A stretch of 29,368 nt of DNA. Source: a virus. Taxonomy: Duplodnaviria > Heunggongvirae > Uroviricota > Caudoviricetes. The DNA lies in IMG/VR virus record IMGVR_UViG_2698536651_000005, positions 1-29,368 of that record. One strand, 5' to 3'. Positions 1,667 through 27,362 of this stretch are shown here, one piece after another (the first letter of the stretch is position 1; each line of letters opens with the position of its first letter). Both the position numbers and the translations under genes were made by a program. The notes under the pieces were generated by a model. That model saw only the letters and a program-made list of their open reading frames with translations. It made no database searches and was not told where the DNA came from.

Positions 1667-3730
1667 TTACGCCGTACATTTCACCAGACCGCGGTGATCA
1701 ACCGGTGCAACGCCGGCGTCAATACGCACTTTCGTGGTCACGCCATCCACACTGAAACCTTCCATCTGATCAATGTATGGCGTATCCACACCGTTGAGAT
1801 AAGCCACTTCAATCGTATCGGAGCCTTTGGATGCAGCCAGATAAAAGGTGGTCTGGCTGCTATCATCCAGACGCGGCTCAGCGATAACGGTCGCAAAATC
1901 TTTCACCGGGTTAATAATACCGGCATTGACGTCTGCGCCTTTCACACTGGCAGAGCGGATCACCTGGTTAGCCACCGATTCCATCGCCGTCGGTACCAGC
2001 ACGAACGCAGGGCGAATATTCAGGTGACGCTCACCTTCTTTCTGAACACGCATCAACTGGCGGGCTTTATCCAGCGATGCCACGTCCATTGCTGCGCTCT
2101 CCAGTACGTTTGCATGTTTCGCTTTATCGAACAGGCTTACATTATCTGTGGAGATTTTCGGGTTAGAGGTCAGAATGGCATAAACCAGATCGGCAATCGT
2201 GGATTTCGCCGCACGGCCCAGCTTCATCGGGACATCGGTCAGCATATTCAGATCATCATTGATAATGGCCTGACGGGTGATACTGAACAGTTCACCATAG
2301 GTCGCCAGTGCAATCGTGGCCTGTTTATCTCCGGTGGTGACGTACTTATATTCAGCCCCTTCACGCACCTTACGCAGAGAACTGAAGCCCCCCATTCCCA
2401 CACGATGAGCAATTTTAAAATCAGACAGCTGACCTTTCCGGGTCCACTGCTCGTAAGTCTCAGGGGCTTCTTCCCAGCCCTGCAGAATGGCTTTGTTCGC
2501 AACATCCAGCAGAATATTACCGAAGTCAGACGAGCTGTGTGTGAATGCCGCACCAACCATCTGCATGGGGTTATAACCGGAAACCCCGATACCCCGTTCA
2601 GTCAGCGACATACGGGCATATTCGCGCAGGGTCATCCCGTTGTAGACGTTATCCTGTTCACGCTCAGCAAATCCGGCACGCGCCATCAGCGCCTGGCGGA
2701 TCCCGTCCCCCACAAAATTACCGTTACCGGCATAAATATGGGCCGGGGTATTTTTATTTGATGGTGAGAATTCCTTACCCATTTCGTTCAGTAACTTCTC
2801 ACGGGCCTGCTCAAGCGAGCACTCCGGATCGGAAAGACAACTGGCCTGCAATGTCTGATAACGCCCACCAAACATACCGAACAGCTCATTAATACCACTC
2901 ACACGTGCTTTTTGCTCTGCCAGTACCTGCGCACGGATACTGCTTTCATCTGCGGAAGGTGCATTTGTGGTAGTCGCGGTTGTGGCAACCGGAGCCGTAG
3001 TAGTCTTATCCTGTGTCTGAGATGCAGTATTTTTGTTTTCAGGTTCACGCGTTGCACTGTTGCGTGGAGGAATAATCATATTTCGAATGGATTCCGGCAT
3101 TTTTTTAAATTCCTCTGTACGTTTTGACTGAATACATGCCATTGCCTTAACTTCTGGTGTCACCTGGTCAGCAAATCCGTGTGCCAGACATTCGGCACCG
3201 GACATCCAGGTTTCATCCGCCAGCATGGCAGCAATTTCATCGGTGGTTTTCCCGGTTTTCTGCGCATAAGCAGGCAACAGGACCGACTCAACTTTATCAA
3301 GCAGGTCGGCATAATCACGCATATCATCCGCATCGCCACCACTCACTCCCCATGGTTTATGGATCATCATGAATGCGTTTTCCGGCATGATGACGGGATC
3401 ACCCACCATTGCAATGACCGATGCCATGGATGCCGCGACACCATCCACATAAACAGTGATGGACGCCCCATGATTTTTCAGCGCATTAAAAATGGCGATG
3501 CCTTCAAAGACATCGCCACCCGGTGAATTGATATGGAGATTAATGTGGGTGATATTACCCAGCGCATTCAGATCGCTGACAAACTGCTTCGCCGTAACTC
3601 CCCAGAAACCAATCTCGTCATAGATATAAATATCTGCGTCACTTTTATGACCCGCCTTCATCCTGAACCAGGAATTATTCTTCAGGCTGGCCTTCAGTTC
3701 GCTGCGGAACCACGCGTTCTGTTTCAGCAT
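1667..3730 (-). CDS. prohead protease (ClpP/S49-like) fused to major capsid protein
   Basis: Long ORF; N-terminal part has ClpP-like serine protease character (YDEIGFWGV...INSPGGDV...MASVIA...MIHKP), C-terminal ~400 aa has the position and size of a major capsid domain after a Thr/Ala-rich linker; track ORF extends to a TTG at 3922 but ATG at 3730 has a perfect AAGGAGGT RBS; 56-nt overlap with portal. Confidence 0.75.
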   Translation of the reverse strand: MLKQNAWFRSELKASLKNNSWFRMKAGHKSDADIYIYDEIGFWGVTAKQFVSDLNALGNITHINLHINSPGGDVFEGIAIFNALKNHGASITVYVDGVAASMASVIAMVGDPVIMPENAFMMIHKPWGVSGGDADDMRDYADLLDKVESVLLPAYAQKTGKTTDEIAAMLADETWMSGAECLAHGFADQVTPEVKAMACIQSKRTEEFKKMPESIRNMIIPPRNSATREPENKNTASQTQDKTTTAPVATTATTTNAPSADESSIRAQVLAEQKARVSGINELFGMFGGRYQTLQASCLSDPECSLEQAREKLLNEMGKEFSPSNKNTPAHIYAGNGNFVGDGIRQALMARAGFAEREQDNVYNGMTLREYARMSLTERGIGVSGYNPMQMVGAAFTHSSSDFGNILLDVANKAILQGWEEAPETYEQWTRKGQLSDFKIAHRVGMGGFSSLRKVREGAEYKYVTTGDKQATIALATYGELFSITRQAIINDDLNMLTDVPMKLGRAAKSTIADLVYAILTSNPKISTDNVSLFDKAKHANVLESAAMDVASLDKARQLMRVQKEGERHLNIRPAFVLVPTAMESVANQVIRSASVKGADVNAGIINPVKDFATVIAEPRLDDSSQTTFYLAASKGSDTIEVAYLNGVDTPYIDQMEGFSVDGVTTKVRIDAGVAPVDHRGLVKCTA

Positions 3731-23061: not shown

Positions 23062-23096
23062 CATGCAAGTTGCAAAAGGATCGAATACACTAAAAT
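23062..23096 (+). promoter_or_regulatory. candidate cI promoter (TTGCAA-17-TAAAAT) overlapping palindrome TGCAAgTTGCA
   Basis: hexamers at 23068-23073 and 23091-23096; perfect 5+1+5 palindrome at 23062-23072 overlaps the -35; within cro/cI divergent intergenic region. Confidence 0.4.
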
Positions 23097-23140
23097 CAAG
23101 TAAAGATTTATCCTTGTAAAGAAACCCACAGGACCTGGTC

Positions 23141-23830
23141 ATGAAGAACGTCAAAAACACGGAAAATCGTATAGCCGCGATGCTGAAAGCAAAAGGATGG
23201 ACTCAAGCTCAACTGGCCCGTAAGTTAGGTGTGAGTGCGCAATCAGTGCAGTACTGGACAACAGGAAAGACATTTCCACGGAGTGATAAGCTTGCGCAGT
23301 TATCAGAGATTAGCGGTTATCCACAATCCTGGTTCTTAGGTGAAGACCCCTCACCGACCTTCTCCTCGCCAGAGAAACACCAGACAAGAACAGATAGCGT
23401 CGTGTTTAATGTCCTTGATGTTGAGTTCAGTTGCGGTGATGGAACTCATGTCCGTGGTGACTTGATAGATGTAGTGCGCTCAATAGAACTTGATCCTGAA
23501 TATGCCCGACGTCTTGTTGGAAATCGGGCATTCAAAAATATAGAAATAGGTAACGCCAGAGGAGACAGTATGGCTCCCACAATCTCACCTGGCGACCTTC
23601 TTTTTCTCGATAAGACAGTAACTTATTTTGATGGAGATGGCATTTATGCATTTTGTTTTGATGGAGAATGCTACGTGAAAAGACTTCAAAAAATTGGAAG
23701 CAAAATCATGGTGTTATCTGATAACCCCAATTATCAACCATGGAGCATCGAAAAAGAGGGTTTAGCTCTGCTTTATATCCAGTCTAAAGTGATCTCATCT
23801 GTACCATTCAATATAAACAGATTTGGTTAG
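23141..23830 (+). CDS. cI: CI-type prophage repressor (N-terminal HTH, C-terminal S24 LexA-like peptidase)
   Basis: HTH WTQAQLARKLGVSAQSVQYW; S24 motifs GDSM (Ser nucleophile) and YVKRL (Lys). Confidence 0.9.
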   Translation: MKNVKNTENRIAAMLKAKGWTQAQLARKLGVSAQSVQYWTTGKTFPRSDKLAQLSEISGYPQSWFLGEDPSPTFSSPEKHQTRTDSVVFNVLDVEFSCGDGTHVRGDLIDVVRSIELDPEYARRLVGNRAFKNIEIGNARGDSMAPTISPGDLLFLDKTVTYFDGDGIYAFCFDGECYVKRLQKIGSKIMVLSDNPNYQPWSIEKEGLALLYIQSKVISSVPFNINRFG

Positions 23831-23841
23831 TCTTTGATTTT

Positions 23842-23864
23842 AACGGGCTTTGCCCGTTTTTTCT
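23842..23864 (+). terminator. rho-independent terminator after cI
   Basis: AACGGGC-ttt-GCCCGTT followed by TTTTCT, 12 nt after cI stop. Confidence 0.6.
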
Positions 23865-23892
23865 GCCTAAAATACACGATATCAATTTTTTC

Positions 23893-23921
23893 TTGACAGC
23901 CTATTTCTCAAAGCATAATAT
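23893..23921 (+). promoter_or_regulatory. near-consensus sigma70 promoter (TTGACA-17-TAATAT), pL-like position
   Basis: hexamers at 23893-23898 and 23916-23921; flanked by ATCAAT motifs also present in the cro/cI intergenic region. Confidence 0.5.
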
Positions 23922-23950
23922 CGCACCATCAATTATAACTTGATTAAGTT

Positions 23951-23963
23951 CAATTTAAAATTG
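23951..23963. promoter_or_regulatory. perfect 13-bp palindrome CAATTTaAAATTG (candidate operator)
   Basis: near-identical CAATTTtAAATTa at 23047-23059 in the cro/cI intergenic region. Confidence 0.35.
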
Positions 23964-23974
23964 TTGGCGGATAT

Positions 23975-24436
23975 ATGAAGACACTAAACGCAACTCCAGA
24001 AACAACCAATTTTAGCAACTGCGACTGTGTTACGCTTAAGAGCTTAGAATTTGATTCCTTTGCATTAAATATTGCGAATTTGCTAAGTGCTGTACGCACA
24101 TTCCATCTTCTGGATTGTGCTCGCTCAAAGGAACTGGGCATTGAGGTAATGGAATTTATCCATGAATATGCCCTATCTGCGGCTTCTCCTGCACAACAAA
24201 AACAATCCTTCCCCAAAAGCTGGCTGGTTAACCTTCGCACCCAACGCGAAGCCTGCGGCTTAACAACAGCCGAACTCGCCAGGCTGCTCGATCTCGATGA
24301 AGACATCATAATCCAGTGGGAGAGCGGAGAGTATGAACCAACTATCAGTATGCTTATCCCGCTGGCAAATGTTCTTGGTTGCGACCCGATGTGGCTGTTA
24401 ACCGGTAAACCAACAGCGGGAGATACTTGCGCATGA
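23975..24436 (+). CDS. hypothetical protein with C-terminal XRE-type HTH (153 aa)
   Basis: C-terminal HTH LTTAELARLLDLDEDIIIQWESGEYEPTISMLIPLANVLG; N-terminal ~70-aa domain paralogous to C-terminus of the next gene. Confidence 0.6.
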   Translation: MKTLNATPETTNFSNCDCVTLKSLEFDSFALNIANLLSAVRTFHLLDCARSKELGIEVMEFIHEYALSAASPAQQKQSFPKSWLVNLRTQREACGLTTAELARLLDLDEDIIIQWESGEYEPTISMLIPLANVLGCDPMWLLTGKPTAGDTCA

Positions 24437-24798
24437 AAAAGTTCGAAAACATAACTGTTCTCCATGTTGATAACTTTGATTATACAAACCAGGAACTTCT
24501 CCCGGAGGTTGTAAAGGCAATAGATGTAGCCGATATAGTGATTAGAGGAAAGAGAATTGTCAAAAACAGGCTCGCATGCACTTCAGGAGCAATGACAGAA
24601 ACAACCTCACAACAAGATGATTATGAAGGCATTTGTCTGGAGCCTGATTCATTTGCGGTAAATGTTTATCATTTATTGCATGCAACACAGGTATTACATA
24701 TGTCCAGTAATCACGAAACAAAAGTACTTGGCAGCGAAATTCTGAATTTTGCATGTGAATATGCAAAAGCTGCTGCCGAAAAAGAATTAGCGCAATAA
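24433..24798 (+). CDS. hypothetical protein (121 aa) sharing a domain with the upstream HTH protein
   Basis: ATGA overlap with upstream gene; residues ~70-115 (LEPDSFAVNVYHLL...LGSEILNFACEYAKAAAE) about 45-50% identical to upstream protein residues ~24-70. Confidence 0.55.
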   Translation: MKKFENITVLHVDNFDYTNQELLPEVVKAIDVADIVIRGKRIVKNRLACTSGAMTETTSQQDDYEGICLEPDSFAVNVYHLLHATQVLHMSSNHETKVLGSEILNFACEYAKAAAEKELAQ

Positions 24799-25183: not shown

Positions 25184-25761
25184 ATCATTCAGAGTTCCGA
25201 TCAGAAGTAACGCCACATGGCATAAAAATTGGTAATAAAACCATTGATTATATTGAGGCCGTACAGCGGCTTAATGATGGCGAATTCGATAATCCATACT
25301 GGCACGGTTTAAGAATCATGCAATGTCTTGCCGAAGCTGATGATGCCGGATTGCTGGGAAGATTTTCAGTCGATCTGAAGGTTGCTCAGTGGCGCTGGCT
25401 GTATGTGATGAAGTTTATCAGTGAAGAGGAAAACAAGAACGGCACCATTGATATCCCTAACGATAACGGAACCACAGATCACGCAGTTATTTATAAGGGA
25501 AAGCATGGTTGTATAAGTATATACCCGGGGCCACTTCGCATTGCCCTGCAAAACCATGTTGAATGGGGATTTATTGAAAAATATGGCGAAGCTGAAGGCA
25601 TGGGGAGAGTTCTGTTTCTCTATCAAAAAATGCTCATCGCAGATCCTGATAATGGTTTCATTCTCTCTGCTATGGGGCGCGAAGGGCTTGAACTCCTTCT
25701 GGATGAAATGATTAACGACCTGAATACTCATGGTATGCCAGAAGCGCCAGTGACACATTAA
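25180..25761 (+). CDS. hypothetical protein (193 aa)
   Basis: AAGGAG RBS 8 nt upstream of ATG 25180 (track ORF extends upstream to 25105); no recognised motifs. Confidence 0.55.
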   Translation: MNHSEFRSEVTPHGIKIGNKTIDYIEAVQRLNDGEFDNPYWHGLRIMQCLAEADDAGLLGRFSVDLKVAQWRWLYVMKFISEEENKNGTIDIPNDNGTTDHAVIYKGKHGCISIYPGPLRIALQNHVEWGFIEKYGEAEGMGRVLFLYQKMLIADPDNGFILSAMGREGLELLLDEMINDLNTHGMPEAPVTH

Positions 25762-25780
25762 ATATTAAGAAGACTATAAT
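25750..25780 (+). promoter_or_regulatory. candidate sigma70 promoter (gTGACAc-18-TATAAT)
   Basis: perfect -10 TATAAT at 25775-25780; upstream of small membrane ORFs and SPFH gene. Confidence 0.4.
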
Positions 25781-25937
25781 TCTTCCATTTTTTACTAACC
25801 GTTTATATGAAAAGCAACCGTGAATTAAACAGAGTAAAACTGATTTTAATCCTTGCCACAGTGCTTACACTAACAGAAATCATTATTCTCTTTATTGCGC
25901 TGTCAGTCGGTTAAAAATATCGGGATACCACAGACCA

Positions 25938-26126
25938 ATGAGACTGTATTTCACAATAGTAATTTTACTGGCAATTATCGCATGCATTTACGGATTACTT
26001 GTTCCGTTCCTTATATCCATGAAGGATACGATAGCAGTTATTTCTGGCTTTGCACTGGCGTTTCTGACCCCGCCCTGCATTTATGCCATTTACAAGGGGC
26101 TTTCTTTCACTAAGGATAAAAGATGA
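25938..26126 (+). CDS. small membrane protein (62 aa, 2 TM), partner of SPFH gene
   Basis: two hydrophobic segments; stop overlaps SPFH start (ATGA); no clear SD. Confidence 0.4.
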   Translation: MRLYFTIVILLAIIACIYGLLVPFLISMKDTIAVISGFALAFLTPPCIYAIYKGLSFTKDKR

Positions 26127-26950
26127 AAAAAATTATTTTTGCTTTAGCCATTGTTCTGCCGACAATTGGCCTTGTCGGTTGCGATCGCGTTGAACCAGGT
26201 AATGTTGGCATCAAGGTAAATAAACTGGGCGACGACAAAGGCGTCGGTGAGGTGGTCGGTGTTGGTCGCTACTGGACTGGCTGGAATACTGAAGTTTATA
26301 TCTTCCCCACCTTCAAACAAATGAAGACCTACGATGAACCGTTCAGTTTCCAGATGAGTGACGGTACAACCATCGGCTATCACATCGGTGTGGCCTACAA
26401 AGTTGATCCATCCAAAGTTACCACGGTGTTTCAGACCTACCGCAAAGGCGTGGATGACATTACCGACACTGACCTGCGCCAGAAAATTGCCGACGCACTC
26501 AATCGGCTGGCCAGCAAAATGACCACTGACAAATTTATCGACGGCGGCAAGTCTGAACTACTGGATGCCGCACTTAAAGACATTCAGGAAGAGATGACAC
26601 CCATCGGCATTCAGGTAATGAGCCTCTCTTATGTAGGTAAACCGGAATACCCTCCAACCGTTATCGACAGCATTAACGCCAAAGTCACGGCAAACCAGAA
26701 AACCCTGCAGCGCGAACAGGAAGTCAAGCAACGTGAAGCGGAGGCCAACATGCTACGTGCGGAAGCTGCCGGACAGGCTGATGCCATTCGAACAAAAGCC
26801 CAGGCAGAAGCCGATGCTATTCGTTTACGCGGTGAAGCTCTGCGCCAGAACCCAGGCGTCATGGAGCTGGAAGCCATCAACAAGTGGAACGGTACACTGC
26901 CGCAATACATGACCAGTGGTGCCAATACACCATTTATCCAGATTAAATAA
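26123..26950 (+). CDS. SPFH/band-7 (prohibitin/HflC-like) domain lipoprotein
   Basis: lipoprotein signal MKKIIFALAIVLPTIGLVGC; SPFH-like core (VEPGNVGIKVN...); Ala/Gln/Glu-rich coiled-coil C-terminal region; AAGGA RBS. Confidence 0.75.
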   Translation: MKKIIFALAIVLPTIGLVGCDRVEPGNVGIKVNKLGDDKGVGEVVGVGRYWTGWNTEVYIFPTFKQMKTYDEPFSFQMSDGTTIGYHIGVAYKVDPSKVTTVFQTYRKGVDDITDTDLRQKIADALNRLASKMTTDKFIDGGKSELLDAALKDIQEEMTPIGIQVMSLSYVGKPEYPPTVIDSINAKVTANQKTLQREQEVKQREAEANMLRAEAAGQADAIRTKAQAEADAIRLRGEALRQNPGVMELEAINKWNGTLPQYMTSGANTPFIQIK

Positions 26951-26990
26951 CTTATATGCCCGGCAGGCCGCCGGGCTAAGGGAAATGAAG

Positions 26991-27362
26991 ATGAACACCC
27001 AGAATACTCAACCGCAAATAATGAACTATGACCCGAATCTGACGTCATGCGGACGCATGGCAAAACAAACCGTTCGATTAACTTTCGGACTATGGGAATA
27101 CCGCGAAACATTCGAAGTTACTGTCGGCGGCAATCTGACCGGACTGGATGTTATCAGTTGCGCTATTGAAAGCCTGTACGCAACGCTGCCTTATGAAGAA
27201 GTCGAGGATGAGCGCACAGGGGGAACAGATATCATGGCCACCATTAATATTGGCGAACTGATATGTCAGGATGAAGACCTGTCCGGAGAACTCTGGCTTG
27301 CCGGGATGCTTATCTCAGCAGAAATTATCAGTATTGAACCCGCTACAAACATACGGCTCTGA
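26991..27362 (+). CDS. hypothetical protein (123 aa)
   Basis: ATG 26991 with AAGGGA RBS (track ORF starts at 26916 inside SPFH gene); no recognised motifs. Confidence 0.45.
   Translation: MNTQNTQPQIMNYDPNLTSCGRMAKQTVRLTFGLWEYRETFEVTVGGNLTGLDVISCAIESLYATLPYEEVEDERTGGTDIMATINIGELICQDEDLSGELWLAGMLISAEIISIEPATNIRL

Follow-up and report, generated by a model that had tools for sequence, protein, structure and literature searches.

The stretch of DNA analyzed here, positions 1 to 29,368 of IMG/VR virus record IMGVR_UViG_2698536651_000005 (29,368 nucleotides (nt), hereafter the window), is a phiP27-like Escherichia coli prophage integrated at yecE, in which a cI-like repressor gene, xis, and int all lie on one strand. 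It carries a cassette of two genes, one for a small membrane protein of 62 amino acids (aa) and one for a 275-aa lipoprotein with an SPFH/Band-7 domain, and this pair is the subject of the present work. Around the cassette, 1.3 kb share 95-96% identity with phage phiP27 and a group of Shiga toxin 2 (Stx2)-converting phages, and 99.2% with an E. coli chromosomal prophage adjoining yecE (DUF72). The order on the + strand is cI-like repressor (23141-23830), helix-turn-helix (HTH) protein, three small or unknown open reading frames (ORFs), a 176-nt AT-rich spacer, the 62-aa ORF (25938-26126), the 275-aa ORF (26123-26950), DUF5406, DUF4222, a 48-aa ORF, xis, and int. The features of the cassette are as follows.

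25938-26126, + strand: gene for the 62-aa two-helix membrane protein (ORF list, phrog_1130, AlphaFold2)
26123-26950, + strand: gene for the 275-aa SPFH/Band-7 lipoprotein (Pfam PF01145, phrog_200, AlphaFold2, Foldseek)
26123-26126, + strand: ATGA shared by the end of the partner gene and the start of the SPFH gene, which couples their translation (sequence)
25933-26963, + strand: unit exchanged between prophages, consisting of the two genes only (Megablast matches H147-H149)

The SPFH lipoprotein and its two-helix partner

Profile searches placed the 275-aa protein in the Pfam Band_7/SPFH family (PF01145; residues 22-208, E 6.1e-31, 108.3 bits against a gathering cut-off of 23.6 bits) and in phrog_200, 'lipoprotein' (E 1e-114). 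Its N-terminus reads MKKIIFALAIVLPTIGLVGC-DR and has the form of a signal peptide, MKK-IIFALAIVLPTIG-LVGC, with a charged n-region, a hydrophobic h-region, and the lipobox LVGC, whose Cys20 is followed by Asp at position +2; this agrees with the lipoprotein pattern of [LVI][ASTVI][GAS]C after a positive n-region and a hydrophobic h-region. The AlphaFold2 model, a monomer built from a 46-sequence alignment with a mean predicted local distance difference test (pLDDT) score of 89.7, comprises a beta-rich SPFH domain (approximately residues 22-175), an unbroken helix of ~65 residues (178-242), a short helix, and a less ordered tail, with the conserved C-terminal motif W255-x-G257-x-x-P260. An initial annotation, made from the letters of this DNA alone, had already proposed an SPFH-domain protein with an LVGC lipobox and a coiled-coil C-terminus, and these proposals are borne out by the family match, by the signal peptide ending in LVGC, and by the continuous helix of the model.

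A Foldseek comparison with the PDB gave HflK, HflC, prohibitins 1 and 2, and erlins 1 and 2 as top matches (E 3e-14 to 1e-12), followed by stomatin (with which the range of the top group reaches E 1e-11), flotillin, QmcA (E 4e-8), and major vault protein; the Foldseek probability was 1.00 for HflK/C, prohibitin, erlin, stomatin, and flotillin. A distant sequence relation to HflK was also detected (PDB sequence match, E 2e-4). Orthology to HflK or HflC was considered and rejected: the models TIGR01933, TIGR01932, NF008181, and NF008259 gave scores of 23.4, 25.5, 20.1, and 18.6 bits against cut-offs of 159, 134, 660, and 427, respectively, the SPFH gene stands alone and not in tandem, and its product begins with a lipoprotein signal peptide and not with a transmembrane helix. 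Judged by these scores and this organization, the 275-aa protein belongs to the SPFH superfamily without being an ortholog of HflK or HflC. It resembles HflK/HflC of E. coli, its best matches in both sequence and fold, in that a long helix and a C-terminal cap segment come after the SPFH domain, which is likewise predicted to be periplasmic at the inner membrane. In contrast to the K/C hetero-pair, the phage has a single gene, its product is only ~17-18% identical and is anchored by a lipobox in place of the N-terminal transmembrane helix, it is phage-borne and has a dedicated two-helix partner, and binding to FtsH is known for the HflK/C side only.

The gene itself has been annotated before, as 'SPFH domain-containing protein', as 'lipoprotein', or, wrongly, as 'serine protease' or 'HflK/C'; of the labels in use for phage genes, 'serine protease' and 'HflK/HflC' are mistaken or too specific. 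The former stands in phiP27 (GenBank), in the Stx2 phage records LC5678xx, and in several others, apparently as an old misannotation that has been propagated. In the phiP27 records NC_003356.1/AJ298298.1 the gene for the 62-aa partner (3307-3492) is left unannotated.

An exhaustive search of representatives at 50% identity yielded 227 clusters at E <= 1e-30 and 972 at E <= 1e-10, and the best 150 listed are mostly ~280 aa long and align across nearly the full length. Among 46 SPFH sequences (34-62% identity), G48, G162, Q192, W255, and G257 are invariant, while the lipobox C20 and P260 are present in at least 90%. The SPFH gene shows 139 synonymous versus 14 non-synonymous segregating sites and is under strong purifying selection. 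Polymorphism counts were drawn from near-identical loci of a first viral scan, diverged loci came from two viral-contig scans with distant representatives, and a profile search with a narrower alignment gave 19 genomic loci.

The 62-aa protein shows two hydrophobic stretches in its Kyte-Doolittle profile, with 'SMKD' between them, and AlphaFold2, run with an alignment of close homologs, predicted helices at 2-26 and 31-61 with a modest pLDDT of 68. It matches phrog_1130, 'membrane protein' (E 2.5e-23), to which 17 of 22 diverged partners also belong (3 others fall in phrog_11742), and an alignment of these 22 reveals near-invariant Pro23, Ser27, and Gly37 around the short loop 'LISMKDT'. A word-indexed search with the 62-aa protein recovered only 35 close clusters, all of them enterobacterial, and its gene has 13 synonymous versus 8 non-synonymous segregating sites.

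The initial annotation had suggested an NfeD-like partner, and this had to be abandoned. Pfam searches with the 62-aa protein and the 22 diverged partners gave neither NfeD nor any other Pfam family at E <= 1, and the protein has just two helices and no soluble domain; because it matches phrog_1130 without matching any Pfam family, we conclude that it is not NfeD. The pair is similar to the SPFH-NfeD operons (QmcA-YbbJ of E. coli, the stomatin PH1511-PH1510, FloA-NfeD) in combining an SPFH gene with a small membrane protein and in its occasional fusions. It differs from them in that its partner is without an NfeD or oligonucleotide/oligosaccharide-binding (OB)-fold domain, the small gene precedes the SPFH gene, and the SPFH domain, which in QmcA faces the cytoplasm, is predicted to lie in the periplasm. 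Two further identities were rejected. The size and the charged C-terminus would fit a holin, yet only 2 of the 22 members match a single holin family, and weakly (E 0.038), and the gene does not lie near lysis genes in the window, in N4, or in P88; a spanin-like pair is contradicted by the missing periplasmic domain of the 62-aa protein and by the position of the genes outside the lysis cassette.

Linkage, spread, and probable early-left setting of the pair

The two genes overlap by ATGA, and AAGGA lies 7-11 nt 5' of the SPFH ATG, so that the initial description of a two-transmembrane protein translationally coupled to the SPFH gene agrees with both the hydrophobic helices and the junction. 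Equally tight junctions are found elsewhere (an 8-nt overlap in N4, a 4-nt overlap in P88, and many IMG/VR loci). Linkage was assessed in 232 loci with an SPFH homolog, which form 28 clusters at ~80% identity and comprise 29,428 six-frame segments, using a partner profile that was iterated for three rounds and confined to ORFs adjoining an SPFH gene. This profile matched the ORF immediately upstream on the same strand in 21 of the 28 SPFH clusters, and its matches among all six-frame segments consisted of 199 adjacent and 2 non-adjacent ones, the latter both being cases in which an insertion sequence, IS1, had entered exactly where the small gene meets the SPFH gene. On inspection by eye, six of the seven profile-negative clusters hold a small two-helix ORF that ends 0-61 nt upstream (27/28 in total), and the sole loci without such an ORF upstream are three from Cytophagales metagenome-assembled genomes. 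A profile restricted to adjacent ORFs could inflate the linkage, but the near-absence of off-target matches and the independent PHROG grouping (phrog_1130) argue against this.

In-frame fusions of partner and SPFH protein are present in 20 of the 150 best representatives (50% identity), 19 of them N-terminal and 1 C-terminal (P0168); a single-round profile of the 62-aa family had matched 13 of the 150, and three rounds raised this to 20. Many SPFH representatives have an N-terminal extension of 60-100 residues with two hydrophobic helices and P-x-L-[IV]-S-x-x-[DS]-[TS]...G, and after it comes a normal lipobox. Fusion in one frame is a classical indication that two proteins are physical or functional partners, and from gene neighborhoods and fusions the two genes form a conserved and specific pair.

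Some variation was seen at individual loci. In the two IS1 cases (L083, ~2215-2990, and L084, from Shigella flexneri CP182556 and E. coli CP178302) the pair has been set ~790 nt apart, and the IS1 terminal repeat at the junction reads GGTAATGACTCCAACTTATTGATAGTG.... The order is reversed in a few lineages, either with the two-helix gene 68 nt after the SPFH gene (L138) or as the C-terminal fusion P0168. The partner lies ~180-500 nt from the SPFH gene, with no overlap, in the large virulent phages of loci L153-L159 (rV5-like phages such as 4MG, PVP-SE1, Ro1, and GAP31) and L143-L147; in these phages, RefSeq places a 'transcriptional regulator' at or beside the partner gene.

A tblastn search detected the SPFH protein in at least 385 of 50,697 phage records, temperate and virulent. 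The temperate carriers include phiP27, Stx phages, the P2-like phage P88, a P1 variant, and prophages of Klebsiella and Burkholderia, and the virulent ones include N4, N4-like phages of Klebsiella and Erwinia, and rV5-like, LUZ24/PaP3-like, and phiCbK-like phages; Ea21-4-like phages, Mx1, jumbo phages, crAss-like phages, and Lak megaphages are also listed as virulent carriers. Among complete E. coli genomes, 389 of 5,426 hold the region (~7%), and 27 of 445 E. coli matches are on plasmids. The N4 pair consists of gp19 ('membrane protein', 68 aa) and gp20 ('lipoprotein') and is located beside gp18, between the RNA polymerase II (RNAPII) genes and the replication genes. Both are true orthologs, gp20 being 62% identical over its full length and gp19 having the P-x-x-x-S...G motif and a partner-profile match at E 1e-7, although N4 is virulent and its lipobox is followed by Tyr-Asp instead of Asp-Arg. 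In P88 the pair lies in an operon between cox and a replication gene, and in the P1 variant between dmt and a DnaB-like helicase. The pair is situated among early genes in the three contexts examined, i.e., this prophage, P88, and N4.

Three Megablast matches (H147-H149) define the segment that has been exchanged between prophages. They extend from query position 829/834 to 1857/1859, corresponding to 25933-26963 of the window, with otherwise different flanks, and the unit begins 5 nt before the small ORF and ends at a hairpin after the SPFH stop codon. In P2-like copies the match at the DNA level is limited to the mature part of the SPFH protein (26171-26917). As read from these boundaries, unrelated phages exchange the cassette as one unit.

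Copies of 76-80% identity are present on replicons of ~105-111 kb in E. coli, Klebsiella, Yersinia pestis, Kluyvera, and Lelliottia, and a size of ~108-111 kb is suggestive of phage-plasmids of the SSU5/pHCM2/pMT1 type. Two E. coli prophage copies are damaged (H146, NZ_CM128601.1, and H132, NZ_CM143725.1): in one, a deletion of ~500 nt has removed the SPFH annotation, and in the other, the SPFH gene has been cut in two by an IS3-family transposase.

The transcriptional setting of the cassette is marked by three features.

23842-23858, + strand: intrinsic terminator after the cI-like repressor gene (terminator scan: 7-bp stem with 5 G-C pairs and a T-run; annotation of a near-identical prophage)
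23881-23944, + strand: probable pL-like (early-left) promoter for the cassette-containing operon (promoter scan, 10/12 matches)
26958-26976, + strand: G+C-rich stem-loop GCCCGGC-AGGCC-GCCGGGC just 3' of the SPFH stop codon (RNA fold dG -17.1 kcal/mol, z -2.1)

The terminator is a strong one and divides transcription of the repressor gene from the downstream operon. The pL-like promoter is near-consensus (TTGACA-17-TAATAT at 23893-23921) and is bracketed by two operator-like palindromes, ATCAA-N7-TTGA(T/C), at 23881-23897 and 23928-23944, which make candidate operators for the repressor of the prophage (the equivalent of pL/OL); a related half-site is found in the cI/cro intergenic region (window 23094-23111). 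The stem-loop after the SPFH gene has no U-tract, was not listed by the terminator scan, and is followed by the ribosome-binding site of the next gene, and it is not a canonical terminator. Since a pL-like promoter is present and the scan found zero + strand terminator-like sites from this promoter to 28122, we infer that the SPFH pair belongs to a repressor-controlled 'early-left' operon running towards xis and int. This agrees with the initial placement of the genes in the early-left operon of a prophage, here a phiP27-like element at yecE with the promoter next to the repressor gene.

Two elements upstream of the pair, both of which had been assigned to it in the initial annotation, fared less well.

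25750-25780, + strand: GTGACA-19 nt-TATAAT, a doubtful promoter-like element in which the preceding gene's stop codon is included in part or whole (sequence)
25807-25914, + strand: 35-aa hydrophobic ORF, probably not a gene (no Shine-Dalgarno, no family, polymorphism)

The letters of the proposed promoter are present, with TGACAC (25751-25756), an 18-nt spacer, and TATAAT (25775-25780), but the -35 element aligned to consensus is GTGACA (25750-25755) with a 19-nt spacer. A sigma-70 scan did not report this element and found 9 promoter-like sites in the region versus 15.0 +/- 3.7 in shuffled sequences; among relatives the -10 element varies between TATAAT and AATAAT. Similarly, the proposed 35-aa peptide corresponds to an existing ORF, but inspection of the sequence revealed no Shine-Dalgarno, and Pfam and PHROG searches gave no match. 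It is found in 52 phiP27-like loci and in the window's own copy and nowhere else among the 232 loci, and its 6 synonymous versus 15 non-synonymous segregating sites are near the neutral expectation. The ORF is open in all variants but one, in which the ATG is lost, but this is uninformative because the sequences are too close. Both elements lie outside the exchanged unit and are missing from another yecE prophage that has the pair. We therefore rejected the 35-aa ORF as a third subunit, given its neutral evolution, its restriction to phiP27-like loci, and its missing ribosome-binding site, and GTGACA-19-TATAAT as a conserved promoter of the cassette's own.

Proposed role and competing explanations

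We tentatively propose, giving the idea slightly less than an even chance, that the pair forms an SPFH ring or cage that is anchored in the membrane, faces the periplasm, and has a transmembrane subunit of its own; it would be made early in infection or induction and serve a general function at the host inner membrane. The SPFH lipoprotein would assemble into the ring or cage via its long helices and C-terminal tails, which appears likely because every solved SPFH protein of such architecture among the Foldseek entries forms one. The cage would stand on the periplasmic face of the inner membrane: the signal peptide and lipobox would put the SPFH domain outside the cytoplasm, Asp at +2, which 95 of 99 recognized close homologs have as part of C-D-R, would point to inner-membrane retention, and the fused members would at least be tied to this membrane because they are joined to a transmembrane hairpin. 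According to the '+2 rule' of E. coli, Asp at +2 retains a lipoprotein in the inner membrane, and Thr or Ser there leads to the outer membrane. The two-helix protein may be a transmembrane subunit present at ~1:1, standing in for the N-terminal helix of HflK/C that the lipid-anchored protein lacks; its hairpin, with conserved residues at the periplasmic turn, would supply a transmembrane 'fence', and the cage would thereby fence off a patch of the inner membrane and any host protein caught inside. Expression would come from the repressor-controlled pL-like operon upon induction or infection and not mainly in the quiescent lysogen. As possible purposes, we rank first that a quality-control protease of the FtsH type, or some other conserved machine of the inner membrane, is captured or shielded, second that the DNA of superinfecting phages is kept from entering, and third that the membrane is mechanically stabilized. 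A conserved target is favored because the family is broad and conserved and because three SPFH families, HflK/C, prohibitin, and QmcA, associate with FtsH-type proteases (PMC2636767).

Several points weigh against this proposal. Oligomerization, lipidation, and localization have all been deduced, the models are of monomers only, and the literature searched holds no experiment on any family member. In the wider family the +2 residue is chiefly Thr or Ser. A Pasteurella multocida prophage protein of matching size, described as 'HflK/C-like', was found in outer-membrane vesicles, stimulates Toll-like receptors (TLR) 1/2, and attenuates virulence when deleted (PMC9872710); this protein, PM0222 (OAZ06802.1) of strain C48-1, is likewise an SPFH protein of 25-35 kDa from a lambda-like prophage, likened to ours by description and not by sequence, and differs in having been reported in vesicles and studied solely as an immune stimulant. 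An outer-membrane location is thus possible in some hosts. The fusions could reflect read-through or gene-calling, and a normal lipoprotein start is visible within several of them, so that separate products may still arise. The element GTGACA-19-TATAAT could still drive some expression in the lysogen, and contact with FtsH, like the target itself, is conjectural.

A more far-reaching version of the cage proposal, which we consider doubtful as a whole, would see in the pair a widespread phage-made membrane nanocompartment, i.e., a periplasmic SPFH cage with a hitherto undescribed two-helix protein (phrog_1130) as its transmembrane subunit, with which very different phages would capture a conserved inner-membrane machine, an FtsH-type protease or the DNA-entry route, early in infection. 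It could then be the missing superinfection-exclusion or membrane-control system of N4 (gp19-gp20), and fused precursors would be cut in two by signal peptidase II.

It is possible, if unlikely, that superinfection exclusion is the function proper, with an early envelope complex halting the DNA of later phages at the inner membrane in the manner of T4 Imm/Sp, P22 SieA, or the lipoprotein Ltp. The exclusion system of N4, a phage with a long lysis delay and a very large burst, is still unidentified (PMC12642591), and the N4 pair adjoins gp18, which RefSeq labels 'superinfection exclusion' and which is similar to P22 gp17. The classical exclusion proteins are small inner-membrane proteins or lipoproteins made early or from a prophage (PMC10883804, PMC3952083). 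The pair shares these traits with the envelope proteins of this kind (T4 Imm and Sp, P22 SieA, TP-J34 Ltp, T5 Llp), and it is found in virulent and temperate phages alike; non-essentiality and a place near immunity or integration genes in temperate phages are also listed among the likenesses. However, it has no sequence or family similarity to them, none of them has an SPFH domain, and the SPFH phage family is far more conserved and widespread (62% identity between the N4 and phiP27-like copies, 139:14 segregating sites, broad host range). Exclusion proteins are usually small, fast-evolving, and lineage-specific. PADLOC-DB v2 gave no match at E <= 0.1 for the SPFH protein, its partner, the 35-aa ORF, or three neighbors, and the 62-aa partner and its diverged relatives matched no Imm-type family. 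None of more than 60 spontaneous rapid-lysis mutants of N4 maps to gp19/gp20, though superinfection is thought to drive lysis inhibition, and this is weak evidence.

Those mutants map to the pinholin, the endolysin, the virion RNA polymerase (vRNAP), and the terminal repeats, and they thereby weaken a reading of the pair as a membrane stabilizer or lysis-timing factor, in which the scaffold would keep the inner membrane energized, delay holin triggering, and lengthen the productive period. The presence of the pair in N4, with its late lysis and large burst, and in jumbo and other large phages would suit such a role, and other bacterial SPFH proteins act with membrane-stress systems such as the phage shock protein (PMC8581546). 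We regard it as rather improbable, since the pair is apart from the lysis genes in N4, P88, and this prophage and is also carried by phages with ordinary lysis timing.

The initial annotation had favored an action on the lysis-lysogeny decision, in which an HflK/C mimic would tune FtsH and hence regulators of the CII/CIII type. Its appeal lies in the HflK/HflC matches, in the FtsH associations cited above, and in the position of the gene in the early-left operon of a temperate phage. We consider this distinctly improbable, and a dedicated lysis-lysogeny role of the pair is unlikely because the same pair is present in strictly virulent phages: N4 and the rV5-like, LUZ24-like, phiCbK-like, and crAss-like phages have no lysogeny decision. 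The scores far under the HflK/HflC cut-offs, the lone SPFH gene, the lipid anchor in place of a transmembrane helix, and the non-NfeD partner also speak against a mimic. Action on FtsH for another purpose is kept as a candidate within the cage proposal.

It is highly improbable that the pair is a lysogenic-conversion gene (moron) encoding a lipoprotein that serves the bacterium, for instance as an envelope or virulence factor seen by TLR2, for although the Pasteurella protein, the AT-rich 176-nt spacer with its promoter-like element ahead of the pair, the PHROGs category of the partner ('moron, auxiliary metabolic gene and host takeover'), and the carriage by Stx-converting phages could be read in this way, the pair is common in virulent phages, the spacer and the off-consensus promoter-like element fall outside the exchanged cassette, other prophages with the pair lack them, and no terminator follows the pair, the downstream hairpin having no U-tract. 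Stimulation of TLR2 is, besides, a generic trait of bacterial lipoproteins.

In the literature searched, phage SPFH genes receive passing, annotation-level mentions only, apart from the Pasteurella virulence paper, and no description of the two-helix partner, the fusions, or any function was found; an N4 lysis preprint and the CRISPRi-ART paper contain nothing on gp19/gp20 or these genes. Structural work on SPFH scaffolds (HflK/C, prohibitins, stomatins, flotillins) is currently active, and what these scaffolds do is defined by their partners and clients. What sets the viral branch apart is that it is lipid-anchored, is predicted to face the periplasm, and has a two-helix partner of its own instead of NfeD. 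The branch is also common, and its carriers include N4 as a model phage, Stx-converting phages, and phages of the therapeutic type that infect Klebsiella, Pseudomonas, and Erwinia. As both N4 and E. coli are tractable, the membrane target of a viral cage and the exclusion system of N4 become directly testable questions.

Neighboring genes

Two minor observations concern genes on either side of the cassette. Upstream, ORFs of 171 aa (23950-24465, - strand) and 153 aa (23975-24436, + strand) overlap nearly fully on opposite strands; the latter is labeled an HTH protein in RefSeq, and HTH models of the DicA/RmrA type match its C-terminal 60 residues only. Downstream, the start of the DUF5406 gene (26916-27362) is ambiguous: with a GTG at 26916 it would share 35 nt with the end of the SPFH gene, and the alternative ATG at 26991 is preceded by a good ribosome-binding site and is the one chosen by RefSeq in the near-identical prophage.

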